Sequence record: PX915678.1
From: a phage
DNA: 64,000 nt
Strand: one strand, 5' to 3'
The notes under the pieces were generated by a model, which did no database searches, was not told the DNA's origin, and saw nothing but the letters and a program-made list of their open reading frames with translations. Every line of letters begins with the position of its first letter. The first letter of the stretch is position 1. Positions 31,998 through 44,430 of this stretch are shown in pieces. A program made the position numbers and the translations under genes.

Positions 31998-34055
31998 TTA
32001 TCCTTGAACGAACTTGTAAGGCATGTTTGTAATATCTATGCAAGACGCAATAATTCCAAGAGATGATTCTACTTTTTGTTTAACATTTGATGAAACAAAT
32101 GATGCAAAGTCAACTCTGTCTTCTATTTCAATATCACCTGTCATTGCAACTACTTCACCAGTTTCCATTAGACGATCACCGTCATAAATTACTGATTCGG
32201 TGAGTTCTTCCGTAGTCATAACTTCAGCTTGAATAAGCTTGTTGTTAGTTTTAGCTGTTCCATCATTGTAAGATGCATCGGTTATTTTATTAACTTTGAC
32301 CATTAATCCACGTGGTAAAATGACTTCCATTTCATTTGAAGGCGCTAAACTTCCACCTGGTAAAACAACGTTGACTTTATCAGCCCCAGTAATAACCCAT
32401 CCAATTCCAACTAAATTATCGCTAGAATTAACAAGTCCTTCATCGTTTTTATCGATAGAAATGTTTAGACGCTTTTCGTCTGGTAAAACACCCACAGCTG
32501 AATCAGTCATCCAAGTACCAAAAATGTTTGGATATAATGATGTTGATACAAAATTTCTAAAATAAAAAACTCGATTTTTTACCAATGCTTCATATATTGA
32601 AGGTAACATTCGCTGTGAACGATATAAAGTAATACCTTTTGGCAGTCGATCACCATTTTTAAAGGCTGAATCTAAATTATCGATGGCTTGTTCTATTTCT
32701 GGTGCTGTTAAAATACTTGTACGTTCATCTGGATTATATAATCCCAAAAGAGCATTATTCATGTCTACATATCCTGAACCTACGTATTCACGAATTCCAC
32801 GTTTTTGTGCCGGTGTGTATTTAGACGGATCTTTATTTTCGACTATAGAATGCAATGACCATCCAACGGTAAGAGCATATCCACGTAATTCTCTTCGAAT
32901 AATCTTTGTTTTTATTGCATTCCAAGAATTTTGTACTAACTCATTCGCAGCATCTTGATTTAAATGCGAATGCTTGTTAATATTTCTTTCTAACCAAGCA
33001 CCTTTATATTTTTCTAAAGTATCATCGACTATAGAAGCAATAGTTTCTAAAGTTTTTATTGAAGTAATAGATTCTTTTCGTAATCTTTCTAAAGCTTTAT
33101 TTTTTATTTCTGCATTAACATCAGATTCTTTATCTTCAGGAATTATAGAAGCTTCTCTGAATGCCATTCCAGCTGTAACACTATTAAGAGCATTCTCTAA
33201 TGCAAATCCTGAAGTAGAAATAACAGTTAATTCATTAGCATCAGAAATTAAAGGCGCGTCAGCGGGTTTATTTAATTCTGCTGCTGAAGCCTCAAATTTT
33301 TGAAACATTGGTGTTTCAAATCTGGAAGATTCTAACGATTGACTTTGTGCAATTGCTCTACGGGAAATTTTAACTTTAACGATTACAGCTTGGTCAGAAC
33401 GTTTATCGTTTTCTTGTGCAATAGATGCTGCAATTGCCTCATTTTTAGTTACTTGAGCTCCGGTATCTTTATTGATATAAACATCACCGACTTTCGATTC
33501 AACTTTAGTAAAGAGCTCGGTACTAATTTCCGGAACTCCTGGAATGTCTTCTAGTGATACATTTTTGCGATGTATAAGAATATATGCATACTTTTTATCG
33601 TAATCCCAGAGTTCCTTAAGAAGGACGTATCTGCCACCTGAACGACTACGGATAAGTCTATCAGCAATAAGTTGAATTTGACGAGCTTGACCAGCAGTTT
33701 TAGACTTAAGAATACGGAGCATGCAGGCATCAATTTTATACTGACGCATCGTCTGCATCGCAACAGTAAAAACTGAATTGATGTAATTAATTGGGCTTGG
33801 ACCGAGACCTTTTAATTTAGCAATTGAACCTTTGGCAGTTAATGTAAAAGGAACAATATGCATCATTTTATCGCCCATCTTTAAATCGCGATTAGTATCA
33901 CCTCCAGATGTATAGGTACATAAACGAAAGCCTGGCTGTTCAATTGCGTCATCAACATGAACTGAAAAAATTTGTGGTATTTTCTTCTTTGGATTTAAGT
34001 TTGTAATCGGAAGAGTAGTATCTTCGTCAAATAATTCTGTAATGAGTTCCATCAT
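31998..34055 (-). CDS. alt: ADP-ribosyltransferase Alt (packaged internal head protein)
   Basis: 685-aa ORF recalled as very close to T4 Alt; ART motifs YRSQ...FVSTSLYPNIF...EMEVILPRG; minus-strand TATAAATA upstream. True start may be the second Met (34052). Confidence 0.93.
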   Translation of the reverse strand: MMELITELFDEDTTLPITNLNPKKKIPQIFSVHVDDAIEQPGFRLCTYTSGGDTNRDLKMGDKMMHIVPFTLTAKGSIAKLKGLGPSPINYINSVFTVAMQTMRQYKIDACMLRILKSKTAGQARQIQLIADRLIRSRSGGRYVLLKELWDYDKKYAYILIHRKNVSLEDIPGVPEISTELFTKVESKVGDVYINKDTGAQVTKNEAIAASIAQENDKRSDQAVIVKVKISRRAIAQSQSLESSRFETPMFQKFEASAAELNKPADAPLISDANELTVISTSGFALENALNSVTAGMAFREASIIPEDKESDVNAEIKNKALERLRKESITSIKTLETIASIVDDTLEKYKGAWLERNINKHSHLNQDAANELVQNSWNAIKTKIIRRELRGYALTVGWSLHSIVENKDPSKYTPAQKRGIREYVGSGYVDMNNALLGLYNPDERTSILTAPEIEQAIDNLDSAFKNGDRLPKGITLYRSQRMLPSIYEALVKNRVFYFRNFVSTSLYPNIFGTWMTDSAVGVLPDEKRLNISIDKNDEGLVNSSDNLVGIGWVITGADKVNVVLPGGSLAPSNEMEVILPRGLMVKVNKITDASYNDGTAKTNNKLIQAEVMTTEELTESVIYDGDRLMETGEVVAMTGDIEIEDRVDFASFVSSNVKQKVESSLGIIASCIDITNMPYKFVQG

Positions 34056-34104: not shown

Positions 34105-34293
34105 TTAATAATCTATTGGTAAGAGAGTACGATATATTTCAAACTTTGGACCTTTTTCATAGGTATCAAATGTTTCTGTGAATTTATTATAAGCATATGC
34201 ATCTATAAATTCAATCATAATTTGTGATACAGAAGTAGAAACATCTCCGCCTTCTTTTTGAGCAACGACAATTGTTTCTAAGTAAGCTTTCAT
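34105..34293 (-). CDS. hypothetical small protein
   Basis: 62-aa ORF whose stop lies just before the alt late promoter; start overlaps the ligase stop. Confidence 0.55.
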   Translation of the reverse strand: MKAYLETIVVAQKEGGDVSTSVSQIMIEFIDAYAYNKFTETFDTYEKGPKFEIYRTLLPIDY

Positions 34294-35750
34294 AGACCAG
34301 TTACCTCATGAAAATCACCAAATACATCCTCGAATGTATTAGCTTTAGTTTTATCTTCACGTAAACGAATCGCAATCGGAAGAAATAATTTAACGTAATC
34401 AGTGCGGCCGTCAGATTTTAACCAACCATTGCATTCACATTCTAGAATTTTTCCAATATAATAATTTTGGTTTTCCATAATGCGAGTACGGTCAAGTTCA
34501 TGCGATTTTACACCGGCTTTATCTTTTAAGCCTGAACCAGCATTTACTTTAATTTTTCCACACTCTGATTCAAGAATAAATCCACCCGCTTTAGTTGGGT
34601 CTTTACGGTGAGGATAAATTCCTACAATTTTTAAATCAACATCAATTACTTCTTTAAATTTATAGAGATTTTTTGAACGAGAATTTTCCCATAATCCATC
34701 AATATTTTTGAGAATAATACCTTCAAGACCTTGGTCAATATACTTTTTATAAATTACCTTAGCTTCATCTAGGTTATTTACTACCTGGTTTTCAATTAAA
34801 ATTACTTTATCATATCCTGATGTCATTTGTTCTAGTTTAGAAAAACGTACATCATATTTTAAACGAAACGCCGGAAGACCGTATATTTCTACCAATGGGA
34901 CATAATCCCAGACCTGAAACTTCATGCATTTGGCTTCTTTTTCTGAAATAGTTCCCTTTAAAGATTTATTGGCGATTCCATTAGAAGCAGTACGTGATTC
35001 AGCTACTTCGGCAAACTCTTTGACTTTACTATTTTCAGGAGTATCAAAAAGAAAATCTAGGCCTTCTGGCTCCTTTTCAACTTGCTCATGGTATACCAAT
35101 TCGCCATCGATTAAAACACCTTCTGGATGAATCTGGCGGGCTTCAGCGGTCATTTTGATTAACTCTTCCTTAAGAAGATCTAATCCTAGATATTCATTAC
35201 CAGCTCGTGATAAAAGACGAACATCATCTAATTCATCGCCTCGGACTTCAGCAAAACACCGAGCTCCATCTGCTTTTAACTGTGCAAAGGCTGGAAATTT
35301 GATATTCTTACTAATGCCTTTTTCATCATAAGAACTTGCCAGCATTTGAGGTTGTTCAGGAATTAAACCTGGCCAAACTTTATTTGCAATAGATACTGAA
35401 GCACCGCATTCAAGATCTCGCATCATCACTCGACGCAAAACTTCAACATCATCCTTTTTACCGTCGGTGATATATCCAGTTAATTCCTCAATTGCCGCAT
35501 TTCCAGTCAATTTCCGAGTAGCTAACGTGAATTCAATGAAGTCAAGCATATCGGTAATAGTCAGCATTCCAAAACTCTGGGTAGCAATACCAGGTTTAGG
35601 CCATTTCTTGATATAATACTGTAACCCACGAGAATAAGTCAGACGATATACTCGTTTAAGCAATTCATTATCTTTATTCTTTTCAAGAATTGCTTGCTTC
35701 TGCTTAGTTGATCCAATAGATGCTATTTCATTCAGAATTTTAAGAATCAT
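34290..35750 (-). CDS. 30: ATP-dependent DNA ligase
   Basis: 486-aa ORF recalled as near-identical to T4 DNA ligase (MILKILNEIASIGSTKQKQAILEKNKDNELLKRVYRL...); adenylation lysine motif KADGAR. Confidence 0.97.
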   Translation of the reverse strand: MILKILNEIASIGSTKQKQAILEKNKDNELLKRVYRLTYSRGLQYYIKKWPKPGIATQSFGMLTITDMLDFIEFTLATRKLTGNAAIEELTGYITDGKKDDVEVLRRVMMRDLECGASVSIANKVWPGLIPEQPQMLASSYDEKGISKNIKFPAFAQLKADGARCFAEVRGDELDDVRLLSRAGNEYLGLDLLKEELIKMTAEARQIHPEGVLIDGELVYHEQVEKEPEGLDFLFDTPENSKVKEFAEVAESRTASNGIANKSLKGTISEKEAKCMKFQVWDYVPLVEIYGLPAFRLKYDVRFSKLEQMTSGYDKVILIENQVVNNLDEAKVIYKKYIDQGLEGIILKNIDGLWENSRSKNLYKFKEVIDVDLKIVGIYPHRKDPTKAGGFILESECGKIKVNAGSGLKDKAGVKSHELDRTRIMENQNYYIGKILECECNGWLKSDGRTDYVKLFLPIAIRLREDKTKANTFEDVFGDFHEVTGL

Positions 35751-36016
35751 TGCTCATCCTTCAAGGTTTGGTTTACAGCTCTATTATAAATCAATTCATC
35801 ATTAAGCTCAGGCAAAGACTTATGATATGTAGTTCTAACTTTATTTCCTTGCATCCAATGCTTGACGTAAATGAAACCTTGCTCTACGCATTTTTTAAAA
35901 ATTCGTTCGTCTTTTTGAGCTCGGAATTCTGGATTGCATCTAAAGAATTGATTTACGTGACCGTAATCACGTGTAGTATTACCTTCATTTTCATAAATAG
36001 TGTGAACGACAAACAT
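35747..36016 (-). CDS. hypothetical protein (30.x island)
   Basis: 89-aa ORF, ATG start, 4-nt overlap with neighbours. Confidence 0.6.
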   Translation of the reverse strand: MFVVHTIYENEGNTTRDYGHVNQFFRCNPEFRAQKDERIFKKCVEQGFIYVKHWMQGNKVRTTYHKSLPELNDELIYNRAVNQTLKDEQ

Positions 36017-36846
36017 TAGAATGCTCCTTGAAAAATATTATCACCACTAGTAGGTCTATTATACAAATACTCTATGCCACCAGGTTTAATATAGTTCCAT
36101 GTCTGAAATGGATGTGTCTGATATGGATGATTATAAGGATTAAATCCAGGCGTTCTCCAGGTAGTGTTCCAAGGAAAAGAATCGTTTTTAACCATCTTCT
36201 CAATTAAATCTTTTATAGCTTTTTCACTATCAAAACTTTCTTTATTTTCCTTCGGTGAAAAAAGCTTATTTTCTACATCATTCCATGTATAAACTCGCTG
36301 AGCAGTTTTTGGAATATTGTCACGCTCTCCTCGAGCCATCCAATAAACAGGAACATTTAATATTTCACTCGCGTGGTCGCAGTGGTGAGCGAGATCGTCA
36401 ATATAACAAATTACGTTATATTTCTCTTTTGCCTTTTTAAACAACTCTTCTTTTGAAGAATCATGACCACACATCATTACTTCTGAGAATGCACCAGGAA
36501 AAAGAGCATTCAAATTAAATTGACGATTCAGCAGAGCGTCAATAGAATCACCCAATGCTGTAACAGCTACAAAATTATAATCTTCTTTTAGTTTGTTAAT
36601 TACACATAGAGCATCTTTATATGGGGATAAGTAACGAATAAAATCTGATCGATTATATTTTTCAATTAACTTGACACCGAGTTCTTCATCACAATTAAAG
36701 AGTTTACCTGGAGAAATAAATTTCTCATCTTGGATCATTTTTAAAATATGTTCTAACGGAAGATTATATTTCTGAGCAAAATAAGGAAGACCTGATTGCC
36801 AGCTTAAACATACTCCATCAATATCAGTTAAAATAGTAGGCTTCAT
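36016..36846 (-). CDS. HAD-superfamily hydrolase-like protein (putative nucleotidase/phosphatase) with C-terminal extension
   Basis: 276-aa ORF; N-terminal HAD motif I (ILTDIDGVCL) and a downstream acidic motif (VICYIDDLAHH); roughly 100 C-terminal residues lack HAD features. Confidence 0.65.
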   Translation of the reverse strand: MKPTILTDIDGVCLSWQSGLPYFAQKYNLPLEHILKMIQDEKFISPGKLFNCDEELGVKLIEKYNRSDFIRYLSPYKDALCVINKLKEDYNFVAVTALGDSIDALLNRQFNLNALFPGAFSEVMMCGHDSSKEELFKKAKEKYNVICYIDDLAHHCDHASEILNVPVYWMARGERDNIPKTAQRVYTWNDVENKLFSPKENKESFDSEKAIKDLIEKMVKNDSFPWNTTWRTPGFNPYNHPYQTHPFQTWNYIKPGGIEYLYNRPTSGDNIFQGAF

Positions 36847-37301
36847 AGAGAGTCTCTTAATAGGTTTAACACATCAATAAATTCAGCTTCGGTTAGTATT
36901 GTATCATCTTTTGTTAGACCACTAGCCATGCTGTGCTTCAAAACTTTTCCTTTCGAGGCTTGTAATGCATCGCGAAAGCCCTTGTTTTGGAACGCTGCTT
37001 CAAAATATGCATTTGTGTATAATTCTTTCCACGCCGGGGAATATCTTGAAAACGGAGTTCCAAGCCAGAAGAGGGTCCCACGGTCCTGAGCTCTAGCATA
37101 AGACCTTCCAGCTTGTTGGGCGGCAAGCCCGGATAACCCAAATATACGACGTTGTTGTTCAACATTTTTCACCTTACACCCTTGGAGGAATCCTTCTAGA
37201 CCTCCAAATTGAATACCATCCATAACGAAAGGCCATTGGGCAAAATTACTTAATGCGCATGATGGCCATTTAAAATTGCTTCTTATCTCTAGCTCAGACA
37301 T
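36843..37301 (-). CDS. NADAR/YbiA-like (DUF1768-type) protein
   Basis: Track ORF starts at TTG (37307); ATG at 37301. The block LSNFAQWPFVMDGIQFGGLEGFLQGCK resembles the YbiA/NADAR signature (SNFA.WP...DG......E..FQ..K), from memory. Confidence 0.6.
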   Translation of the reverse strand: MSELEIRSNFKWPSCALSNFAQWPFVMDGIQFGGLEGFLQGCKVKNVEQQRRIFGLSGLAAQQAGRSYARAQDRGTLFWLGTPFSRYSPAWKELYTNAYFEAAFQNKGFRDALQASKGKVLKHSMASGLTKDDTILTEAEFIDVLNLLRDSL

Positions 37302-37500
37302 TTTCAATACTTATAATTTCAACATCAGCCCAATGACCATAGCAAGGAAGACGAAATTCAACTGGCCAGTTAGGGTCCTTTTCTAATATAATAGACTGAA
37401 CTTGTGGCTCTTCATATTCATCGGTATACGGACCTTTATACGTTACTTTATATGTGACTTTAATGTATTGAATTCCAAAAATCTTATTAATTATATTCAT
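37294..37500 (-). CDS. hypothetical protein
   Basis: 68-aa ORF, ATG start, in a head-to-tail overlapping array. Confidence 0.5.
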   Translation of the reverse strand: MNIINKIFGIQYIKVTYKVTYKGPYTDEYEEPQVQSIILEKDPNWPVEFRLPCYGHWADVEIISIENV

Positions 37501-37981: not shown

Positions 37982-38022
37982 AGTATTTTCCTCAATGAGG
38001 GGCCGAAGCCCCTCATTTTATT

Positions 38023-43204: not shown

Positions 43205-43205
<1 letters not shown>
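43008..43205 (-). CDS. hypothetical protein
   Basis: 65-aa ORF abutting pseT. Confidence 0.5.

Positions 43206-44430
<1,225 letters not shown>

Follow-up and report, generated by a model that had tools for sequence, protein, structure and literature searches.

Gene 30.2 of T4-like phages: a predicted HAD-type phosphatase near the NT5C deoxyribonucleotidases, with a fast-evolving C-terminal tail

In this work, we describe gene 30.2 and its product, gp30.2, in a 64,000-nucleotide stretch of phage DNA (sequence record PX915678.1), referred to below as the window. On balance, gp30.2 is probably a HAD-superfamily phosphomonoesterase, soluble and dependent on Mg2+, from a branch that extends across phages and is sister to the NT5C 5'(3')-deoxyribonucleotidases. 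The type of enzyme is a known one, of which gp30.2 is a divergent, otherwise ordinary representative. Its C-terminal extension is most plausibly non-catalytic, and the structural models and the comparison of homologues suggest a linker helix followed by a disordered, fast-evolving tether which, by means of clade-specific short linear motifs, would bind the enzyme to a partner protein or complex. The gene is kept in T4-like phages of many hosts, beside DNA ligase, yet has no function to its name in T4, the best-studied phage.

36016..36846, minus strand: gene 30.2 coding sequence, 276 amino acids (aa) plus stop; ATG start, 98% aa identity to T4T, match to phrog_420 at 9e-93

The ATG-initiated open reading frame (ORF) of 276 aa, present on the minus strand as described by an earlier reading of the letters alone (the sequence-only reading), is the orthologue of bacteriophage T4 gene 30.2. 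The region shares 97% DNA identity with sequenced Tequatrovirus (T4-type) phages, and its gene order along the strand matches the T4T annotation: 31, rIII, 30.9 to 30.4, 30.3, 30.2, 30.1, 30 (DNA ligase), alt.1 and alt. A T4 orthologue, many homologues and a low ratio of nonsynonymous to synonymous substitution rates (dN/dS) in the core, not exceeding 0.05 among Tequatroviruses, identify 30.2 as a genuine gene and not a chance ORF. At least 100 homologues of gp30.2 were among the matches listed by the first protein search. In an exhaustive profile search, covering 1.84 billion cluster representatives, 1460 of them matched at E≤1e-3 (654 of these at E≤1e-10), and the majority of the matches are 190-215 aa long. 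Orthologues are annotated as "hypothetical protein" in some records, and as HAD-like hydrolase or 5'(3')-deoxyribonucleotidase in a few. Gene 30.2 has been on T4 gene lists since the 1990s, to judge from a 1994 Gene paper as cited in PMC11125620.

Catalytic domain and nearest family

The catalytic part of the protein comprises the following elements.

36259..36846, minus strand: HAD phosphatase core with cap, residues 1-196
36811..36825, minus strand: HAD motif I, DIDGV (Asp8 as nucleophile, Asp10 as acid/base), both Asp residues invariant in alignments of 36 and of 111 sequences
36589..36801, minus strand: C1 helical cap, residues 16-86, beginning with Trp16; from predicted helices and the conservation of Trp16
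36556..36570, minus strand: HAD motif II, VAVTA (Thr96), at the end of strand 91-96; Thr96 near-invariant, Ala97 invariant
36451..36453, minus strand: HAD motif III, Lys132, invariant in both alignments and paired with a Lys of 3bwv
36391..36405, minus strand: HAD motif IV, YIDDL (Asp150/Asp151, predicted Mg2+ ligands), conserved and paired with IDDNP of 3bwv

Residues 1-190 are modelled by AlphaFold2 with block-mean values of the predicted local distance difference test (pLDDT) between 89 and 98. The model features the Rossmannoid alpha/beta core of the HAD superfamily, whose strands carry motifs I-IV in the order expected, and an insertion of five to six helices right after motif I, corresponding to a C1 cap (helices at 16-26, 32-40, 46-49, 54-65, 68-72 and 77-86). 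The sequence-only reading had pointed to a motif I, TDIDGVCL, and to a downstream acidic motif, CYIDDLAHH, and had suggested a phosphatase or nucleotidase. The two motifs are indeed found, at residues 7-14 and 147-155, respectively, and the suggestion agrees well with what is predicted: a confident HAD fold for residues 1-196, all catalytic residues in place, with D8/D10 and D150/D151 properly aligned, and NT5C as the nearest family.

In the alignment of 36 orthologues, every sequence has D8, D10, G11, A97, R108, K132 and R172, and nearly every one has T96, D150 and D151. Among 111 relatives, at 20-46% identity, the invariant positions are D8, D10, R108 and K132, with W16, N111, L112 and D151 conserved in at least 90%. 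The cap carries a conserved signature peculiar to the gp30.2 family, made up of SGLPYFAQKYNLP, SDFIRYL and LNRQFNLNALFPGAF.

Family assignment needed homologue profiles, because sequence searches of Pfam, NCBIfam and the PDB gave nothing direct: phmmer of gp30.2 against the PDB returned only noise, and the strong match to PHROG 420 leads to a family of unknown function. The search for HAD and NT5C families which the sequence-only reading had proposed thus succeeded only by way of relatives, no direct Pfam match being obtained, while homologue profiles reach the cytosolic and mitochondrial deoxyribonucleotidases (cdN and mdN) and the Staphylococcus epidermidis protein 3bwv. A profile of orthologues reaches mouse cdN (E=0.02), in an alignment that runs over motif I and the cap and sets Trp16 opposite a Phe at nucleophile+8; in gp30.2, as in NT5C proteins, the C1 cap follows directly upon motif I and an aromatic residue occupies nucleophile+8. 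A broader family profile matches 3bwv over its full length (E=5e-7) and mdN and cdN at 0.004-0.09, with further, weak matches to the nucleotide phosphatases SSM1/Sdt1 and to XMP phosphatase. From the opposite side, the Pfam NT5C model is matched by 43 of the 111 distant members at E≤0.01 (best 4e-10), and one distant relative, P0200, exceeds its gathering score (29.4 bits, cut-off 24.8).

Fold comparison leads to the same neighbourhood. Among the top Foldseek matches, the best target TM-scores and root-mean-square deviations belong to 3bwv and to the deoxyribonucleotidases of mouse and human, both cytosolic and mitochondrial; the nearest viral structure models are annotated as 5'-nucleotidase or deoxyribonucleotidase. 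Profile and fold searches point the same way, and NT5C as the nearest family of gp30.2 is supported at the level of sequence profiles and models. The profile links to cdN, mdN and 3bwv, together with the NT5C matches of its relatives, lead us to treat gp30.2 as a divergent NT5C sister branch, NT5C-like in its predicted workings and formally outside Pfam's NT5C threshold.

Some members of the family are fused to further domains: P0150 (591 aa), P0142 (365 aa), P0102 (430 aa) and P0208 (660 aa). In P0150, the match at the N-terminus is to a PHROG that carries the label "DNA polymerase" (phrog_24943, 1.4e-34); no annotation match was found for the other fusion partners.

From fold and family we infer an activity, a substrate and a biological role. 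Asp8 would attack the substrate phosphate, forming an aspartyl-phosphate, and Asp10 would protonate the leaving group and then activate a water molecule; Thr96 and Lys132 would hold the phosphoryl group, and Asp150/Asp151 would bind Mg2+. The cap would close over a small substrate, with Trp16 at the position of a cdN/mdN Phe which we take to be nucleotide-contacting. Capped HADs, as an established rule, act on small molecules, and the large C1 cap thus argues for a small-molecule substrate; placement near NT5C narrows this, most likely, to (deoxy)nucleoside monophosphates. In infection, gp30.2 may trim or edit the nucleotide pool, and may do so early, if expressed like the T4 early/middle region.

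Several points weigh against this assignment. Taken by itself, gp30.2 matches no Pfam or NCBIfam model, NT5C (PF06941) included, even at E≤1, and its placement, which proceeds through profiles of relatives, is transitive and to be read at the level of a family neighbour. Gly11 of motif I, elsewhere near-invariant, is replaced by Glu in a T2 record (MH751506, L159:907-1749), and by Asp in the homologues P0015 and P0034; such natural alleles could be weakened. The extension is not docked onto the enzyme in either of the two AlphaFold2 models. In the literature, no functional study of 30.2 or gp30.2, biochemical or genetic, was found, the locus being mentioned only by papers on the neighbouring gene product AdfN. 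Finally, an enzyme destroying deoxynucleoside monophosphates (dNMPs) seems counter-productive for a phage which recycles those of its host. Since a general dNMPase would oppose T4 dNMP salvage, bulk dNMPs and one specific mononucleotide (aberrant, 3'- or non-DNA) are equally likely as substrates. Why a phage that salvages host dNMPs should carry a nucleotide phosphatase is the question which these results raise, and the NT5C-like placement yields a concrete panel of assays.

The C-terminal extension

The sequence-only reading had noticed about 100 Trp/Pro/Asn-rich C-terminal residues without HAD features. HAD features are indeed absent; the extension is, however, shorter, about 80 residues (197-276), and its enrichment, which concerns Pro, Asn, Thr and aromatic residues, is restricted to positions 223-276.

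36181..36258, minus strand: linker and amphipathic helix, residues 197-222 (helix at 207-220, pLDDT about 86; at 205-220 in a second model)
36019..36180, minus strand: predicted disordered tail, rich in Pro, Asn, Thr and aromatic residues, residues 223-276 (from pLDDT and composition)
36100..36129, minus strand: tandem repeat, 15 nt x 2, encoding HPYQT-HPFQT (from TRF and translation)
36049..36078, minus strand: short linear motif GIEYLYNRPT, recurrent in long homologues, with weak helical propensity at 258-263 in the second model

Fold prediction of this region, which had been suggested as a check, thus gives a linker helix followed by a 54-residue tail, predicted as disordered (pLDDT below 50) in two models. 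The second AlphaFold2 run was based on a tail-rich alignment, and resulted in lower overall confidence and no gain within the tail. The tail is made up of 13% Pro, 11% Asn, 11% Thr and 24% Phe, Tyr and Trp taken together. To our knowledge, it bears no resemblance to the T4 clamp-binding C-terminal peptides.

The distribution of the tail was evaluated in 73 IMG/VR loci containing a 30.2 orthologue, drawn from 80-locus samples. Short, tail-less forms (below 245 aa) account for 46 of the 73 loci, long forms for the remaining 27. Because of this prevalence of tail-less orthologues, and because distant relatives are nearly all 190-215 aa long, the tail is best regarded as a derived appendage. Within Tequatroviruses its dN/dS is 0.06-0.42, above the values of the core: selection on the tail is weaker, yet still purifying, and in spite of its rapid change the tail is in frame in all cases.

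Two tail alleles were identified, ...GGIEYLYNRPT... and ...GDAGYFNRLT.... A pattern of the first kind, E[YW][LWYMF]...P[TRK], resembling GIEY(L/W)xxQPT, recurs near the C-terminus of 18 long homologues from other genera, at 46-73% overall identity. Other clades have terminal tail motifs of their own, and RB69 gp30.2 carries a distinct tail without the GIEYL motif. The motif, searched as a regular expression, occurs once in the window, and tblastn of the tail against phages revealed a single site per genome, always in gene 30.2, among the matches listed (500 records). In phage BYEP01 (L160:907-1794) the NPYYTHPY-type repeat is expanded, the protein reaching 295 aa versus 276 in the window, which shows repeat slippage in the gp30.2 tail.

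In the reading of gp30.2 as an NT5C-like phosphatase, the tail would tether the enzyme to a partner protein or complex. In evolutionary terms, it offers a clean natural case of a fast-evolving, motif-bearing disordered appendage on a conserved phage enzyme.

Neighbouring genes and alternative roles

The genes adjacent to 30.2 have to be considered in order to weigh other possible roles of its product.

36843..37307, minus strand: gene 30.3, AdfN (NADAR DNA ADP-ribosylglycohydrolase), 5' neighbour of 30.2; Pfam Phage_30_3 at 2e-69 and T4 annotation
35747..36016, minus strand: gene 30.1 (DUF3045), 3' neighbour of 30.2; Pfam DUF3045 at 5.6e-63
34290..35750, minus strand: DNA ligase gp30, conserved 3' neighbour of 30.2; T4 annotation

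A ligase gene lies downstream of 30.2, on the same strand, in 71 of the 73 loci; the distance between the two is no more than 400 nt in 63 of the loci and no more than 100 nt in 26. Such a constant association would fit a DNA-end-healing 3'-phosphatase, which readies nicks for the adjacent ligase, the two forming a split PNKP-like repair pair. Minor hints in this direction come from a weak PHROG match to polynucleotide kinase (E=0.002, residues 74-177), from the single relative, out of 111, touched by Pfam HAD_PNKP, and from the fusion of the distant relative P0150 to the "DNA polymerase"-labelled domain. However, synteny extends broadly across the block between gp31 and alt (gp31 is present in 58 of the 73 loci, alt in 55), and ligase adjacency may therefore be inherited gene order and not function. 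PNKP-type phosphatases are capless (C0) HADs with a DxDGT motif I, whereas gp30.2 has a large C1 cap and DxDGV. Moreover, the phage already has a Pnk (43205..44113) with a 3'-phosphatase domain, to which hhalign pairs motif IV only, with a probability of 5.6%; T4 pseT mutants have classically been reported to be without 3'-phosphatase activity. Adjacency to ligase probably does not imply a DNA-end phosphatase role, and we consider end healing by gp30.2 unlikely.

A similarly low probability may be assigned to a role in counter-defence, where gp30.2 would destroy a mononucleotide acting as a danger or other signal, such as the m6-dAMP sensed by PUA-Cal-HAD, or a mononucleotide derived from nicotinamide or ADP-ribose and tied to alt and adfN. 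The nucleotidase-like fold is in keeping with such a role, SSM1/Sdt1-type nucleotidases are among the weak profile matches, and a fast-evolving tail fits an arms race; in addition, m6-dAMP released by phage-induced breakdown of host DNA triggers a known defence system (bioRxiv 10.64898/2026.01.15.699771). Tail-less orthologues are, however, common, and the proposal is drawn from the enzyme class, with no genetic link to any defence system. Its m6-dAMP/PUA-Cal-HAD version was set aside, given that the Tequatroviruses T2 and Bas36-38 are still restricted by PUA-Cal-HAD and that T4 immunity is attributed to Arn (bioRxiv 10.64898/2026.01.15.699771).

The gene upstream of 30.2, called NADAR-like by the sequence-only reading, is T4 30.3 and encodes AdfN, a protein of NADAR fold which strips ADP-ribose from guanine in DNA; for T-even phages to resist DarTG1, it is both required and enough (PMC11825919). 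Its activity in vitro was shown by an independent study as well (PMC11125620). As removal of ADP-ribose from DNA has been demonstrated experimentally, AdfN acts on DNA and not on free nucleotides. The 4-nt overlap of the two genes, which had been taken as a sign of co-translation, is there: the stop of the 36843..37307 ORF and the 30.2 start share ATGA in the window, in T4 and in T2. Overlaps of 1-14 nt are, however, found at 30.5/30.4, 30.4/30.3, 30.3/30.2, 30.2/30.1, 30.1/30 and 30/alt.1, and such a run of junctions through seven consecutive genes means that the 30.3/30.2 overlap says little about that pair.

Across the 73 T4-like loci, the HAD-NADAR neighbourhood is not conserved: the two genes abut in 16, AdfN is found 65-1252 nt upstream of 30.2 in another 20, and in the remaining 37 the 5-kb upstream flank contains no AdfN. 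A separate scan located AdfN about 47-118 kb from 30.2 in at least 15 of these near-complete genomes, all T4-like but not Tequatroviruses (L107, L109, L121, L125-L127, L131, L142, L144, L146, L151, L152, L157, L158 and L098); these distant copies are accompanied neither by a 30.2-like gene nor by any other gene of the 64-kb window. AdfN has been relocated during Straboviridae evolution. Presence of the tail does not parallel AdfN adjacency, which is found in 7 of 27 long forms and in 9 of 46 short ones. The overlap is a lineage-specific accident of gene packing and does not mark a conserved module. The nucleotide or ADP-ribose processing module imagined for the HAD and NADAR pair is not supported, AdfN acting on DNA and adjacency being limited to 16 of the 73 loci.

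By its gene position, gp30.2 is nonetheless an obvious candidate for a helper of AdfN. AdfN-T4, active in vitro, leaves uninfected E. coli unprotected against DarT1 and gives non-T-even phages no more than a partial rescue; an unidentified T-even factor has been proposed (PMC11825919, PMC11125620). gp30.2 might be required by AdfN in vivo, either to act on a phosphorylated intermediate or product that arises when ADP-ribose is removed, or to stabilize or localize AdfN itself; the ATGA overlap would then mean stoichiometric co-production. In keeping with this, each of the two genes is common among T4-like genomes, and 30.2 is intact in RB69, a phage in which ectopic AdfN-T4 is functional. Against it stand the infrequent adjacency and the distant AdfN copies just described, the overlap pattern common to the seven genes, and the lack of co-variation between tail and AdfN adjacency. 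Furthermore, NADAR cuts the base-ribose bond, so that no obvious phosphomonoester substrate is left, and the work on AdfN does not implicate 30.2 (PMC11825919). A helper role is, on these grounds, improbable, and a more specific version, in which gp30.2 is the missing T-even-specific factor acting with AdfN against DarT1, and its tail docks the pair on replicating phage DNA or on a phage complex, is slightly more doubtful still. If true, it would define a two-component HAD and NADAR counter-defence unit; unlikely as comparative genomics makes it, gp30.2 is the cheapest candidate for the T-even factor of AdfN.

Within 30.3, a 75-aa ORF in another frame (36938-37165, minus strand) corresponds to the internal gene 30.3' annotated in T4. 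For RB69 30.3 (L161:12268-12681) the annotation gives 137 aa, in agreement with the published AdfN-inactivating frameshift.

On the other side, the junction between 30.2 and 30.1 reads CAAGGAGCATTCTAATG. The AAGGAG ribosome-binding site of 30.1 falls within the last four codons of 30.2 (CAA GGA GCA TTC TAA TG; 36014-36030, minus strand), which may explain why the protein end, ...FQGAF, is invariant in Tequatroviruses. In P0015 (302 aa, encoded on a 1378-nt Logan contig), 30.2 is of the short form and continues in frame into 30.1 (DUF3045), through either a true fusion or a stop codon lost at the TAATG junction.

Elsewhere in the region, a 10-bp GC-rich, terminator-like hairpin (AATGAGGGGCCGAAGCCCCTCATT) lies between the 30.7 and 30.6 orthologues (window 37994-38017); scans for promoters and terminators gave counts that did not differ from those of shuffled sequences. 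The alt gene (31998-34055) was compared with that of four relatives (L001-L004): its identity is 71% to two of them, for which the ligase and 30.x genes reach 96-100%, and 97% to the other two, which points to a recombination or mosaic boundary just 3' of ligase.

Comparison with known systems

Compared with DarT1-NADAR (DarTG1) and other NADAR pairs, the locus is similar in that 30.2 lies directly 3' of a NADAR gene, with a 4-nt overlap. The known partners of NADAR proteins are, however, ADP-ribosyltransferase toxins and not HAD phosphatases, and the 30.2-AdfN adjacency is not conserved.

With Pnk/PseT, a phage enzyme tied to ligation and repair, and the PNKP phosphatase domain, gp30.2 has in common the HAD superfamily and a DxD nucleophile motif, along with the vicinity of its gene to a ligase. 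Pnk is, in contrast, capless, features DxDGT and is fused to a kinase, while gp30.2 lacks a kinase part, bears a large C1 cap and aligns with Pnk at motif IV alone.

T4 gp30.2, of PHROG 420, is the orthologue proper, occupying the identical position between 30.3 and 30.1/ligase; the two proteins differ by a few substitutions and by a 2-residue change in the repeat region of the tail.

The closest parallel outside the family is provided by NT5C (human and mouse cdN and mdN; PF06941) and by S. epidermidis 3bwv. Identity to gp30.2 is only 13-21%, and gp30.2, which taken by itself fails PF06941, differs by its own cap signature and its 80-residue extension. What they are predicted to share is a catalytic unit of about 190-200 residues, composed of the HAD core and a helical C1 cap, with a DxDGV motif I, motifs II-IV, and an aromatic residue at nucleophile+8, Trp16 in gp30.2 and Phe in cdN.

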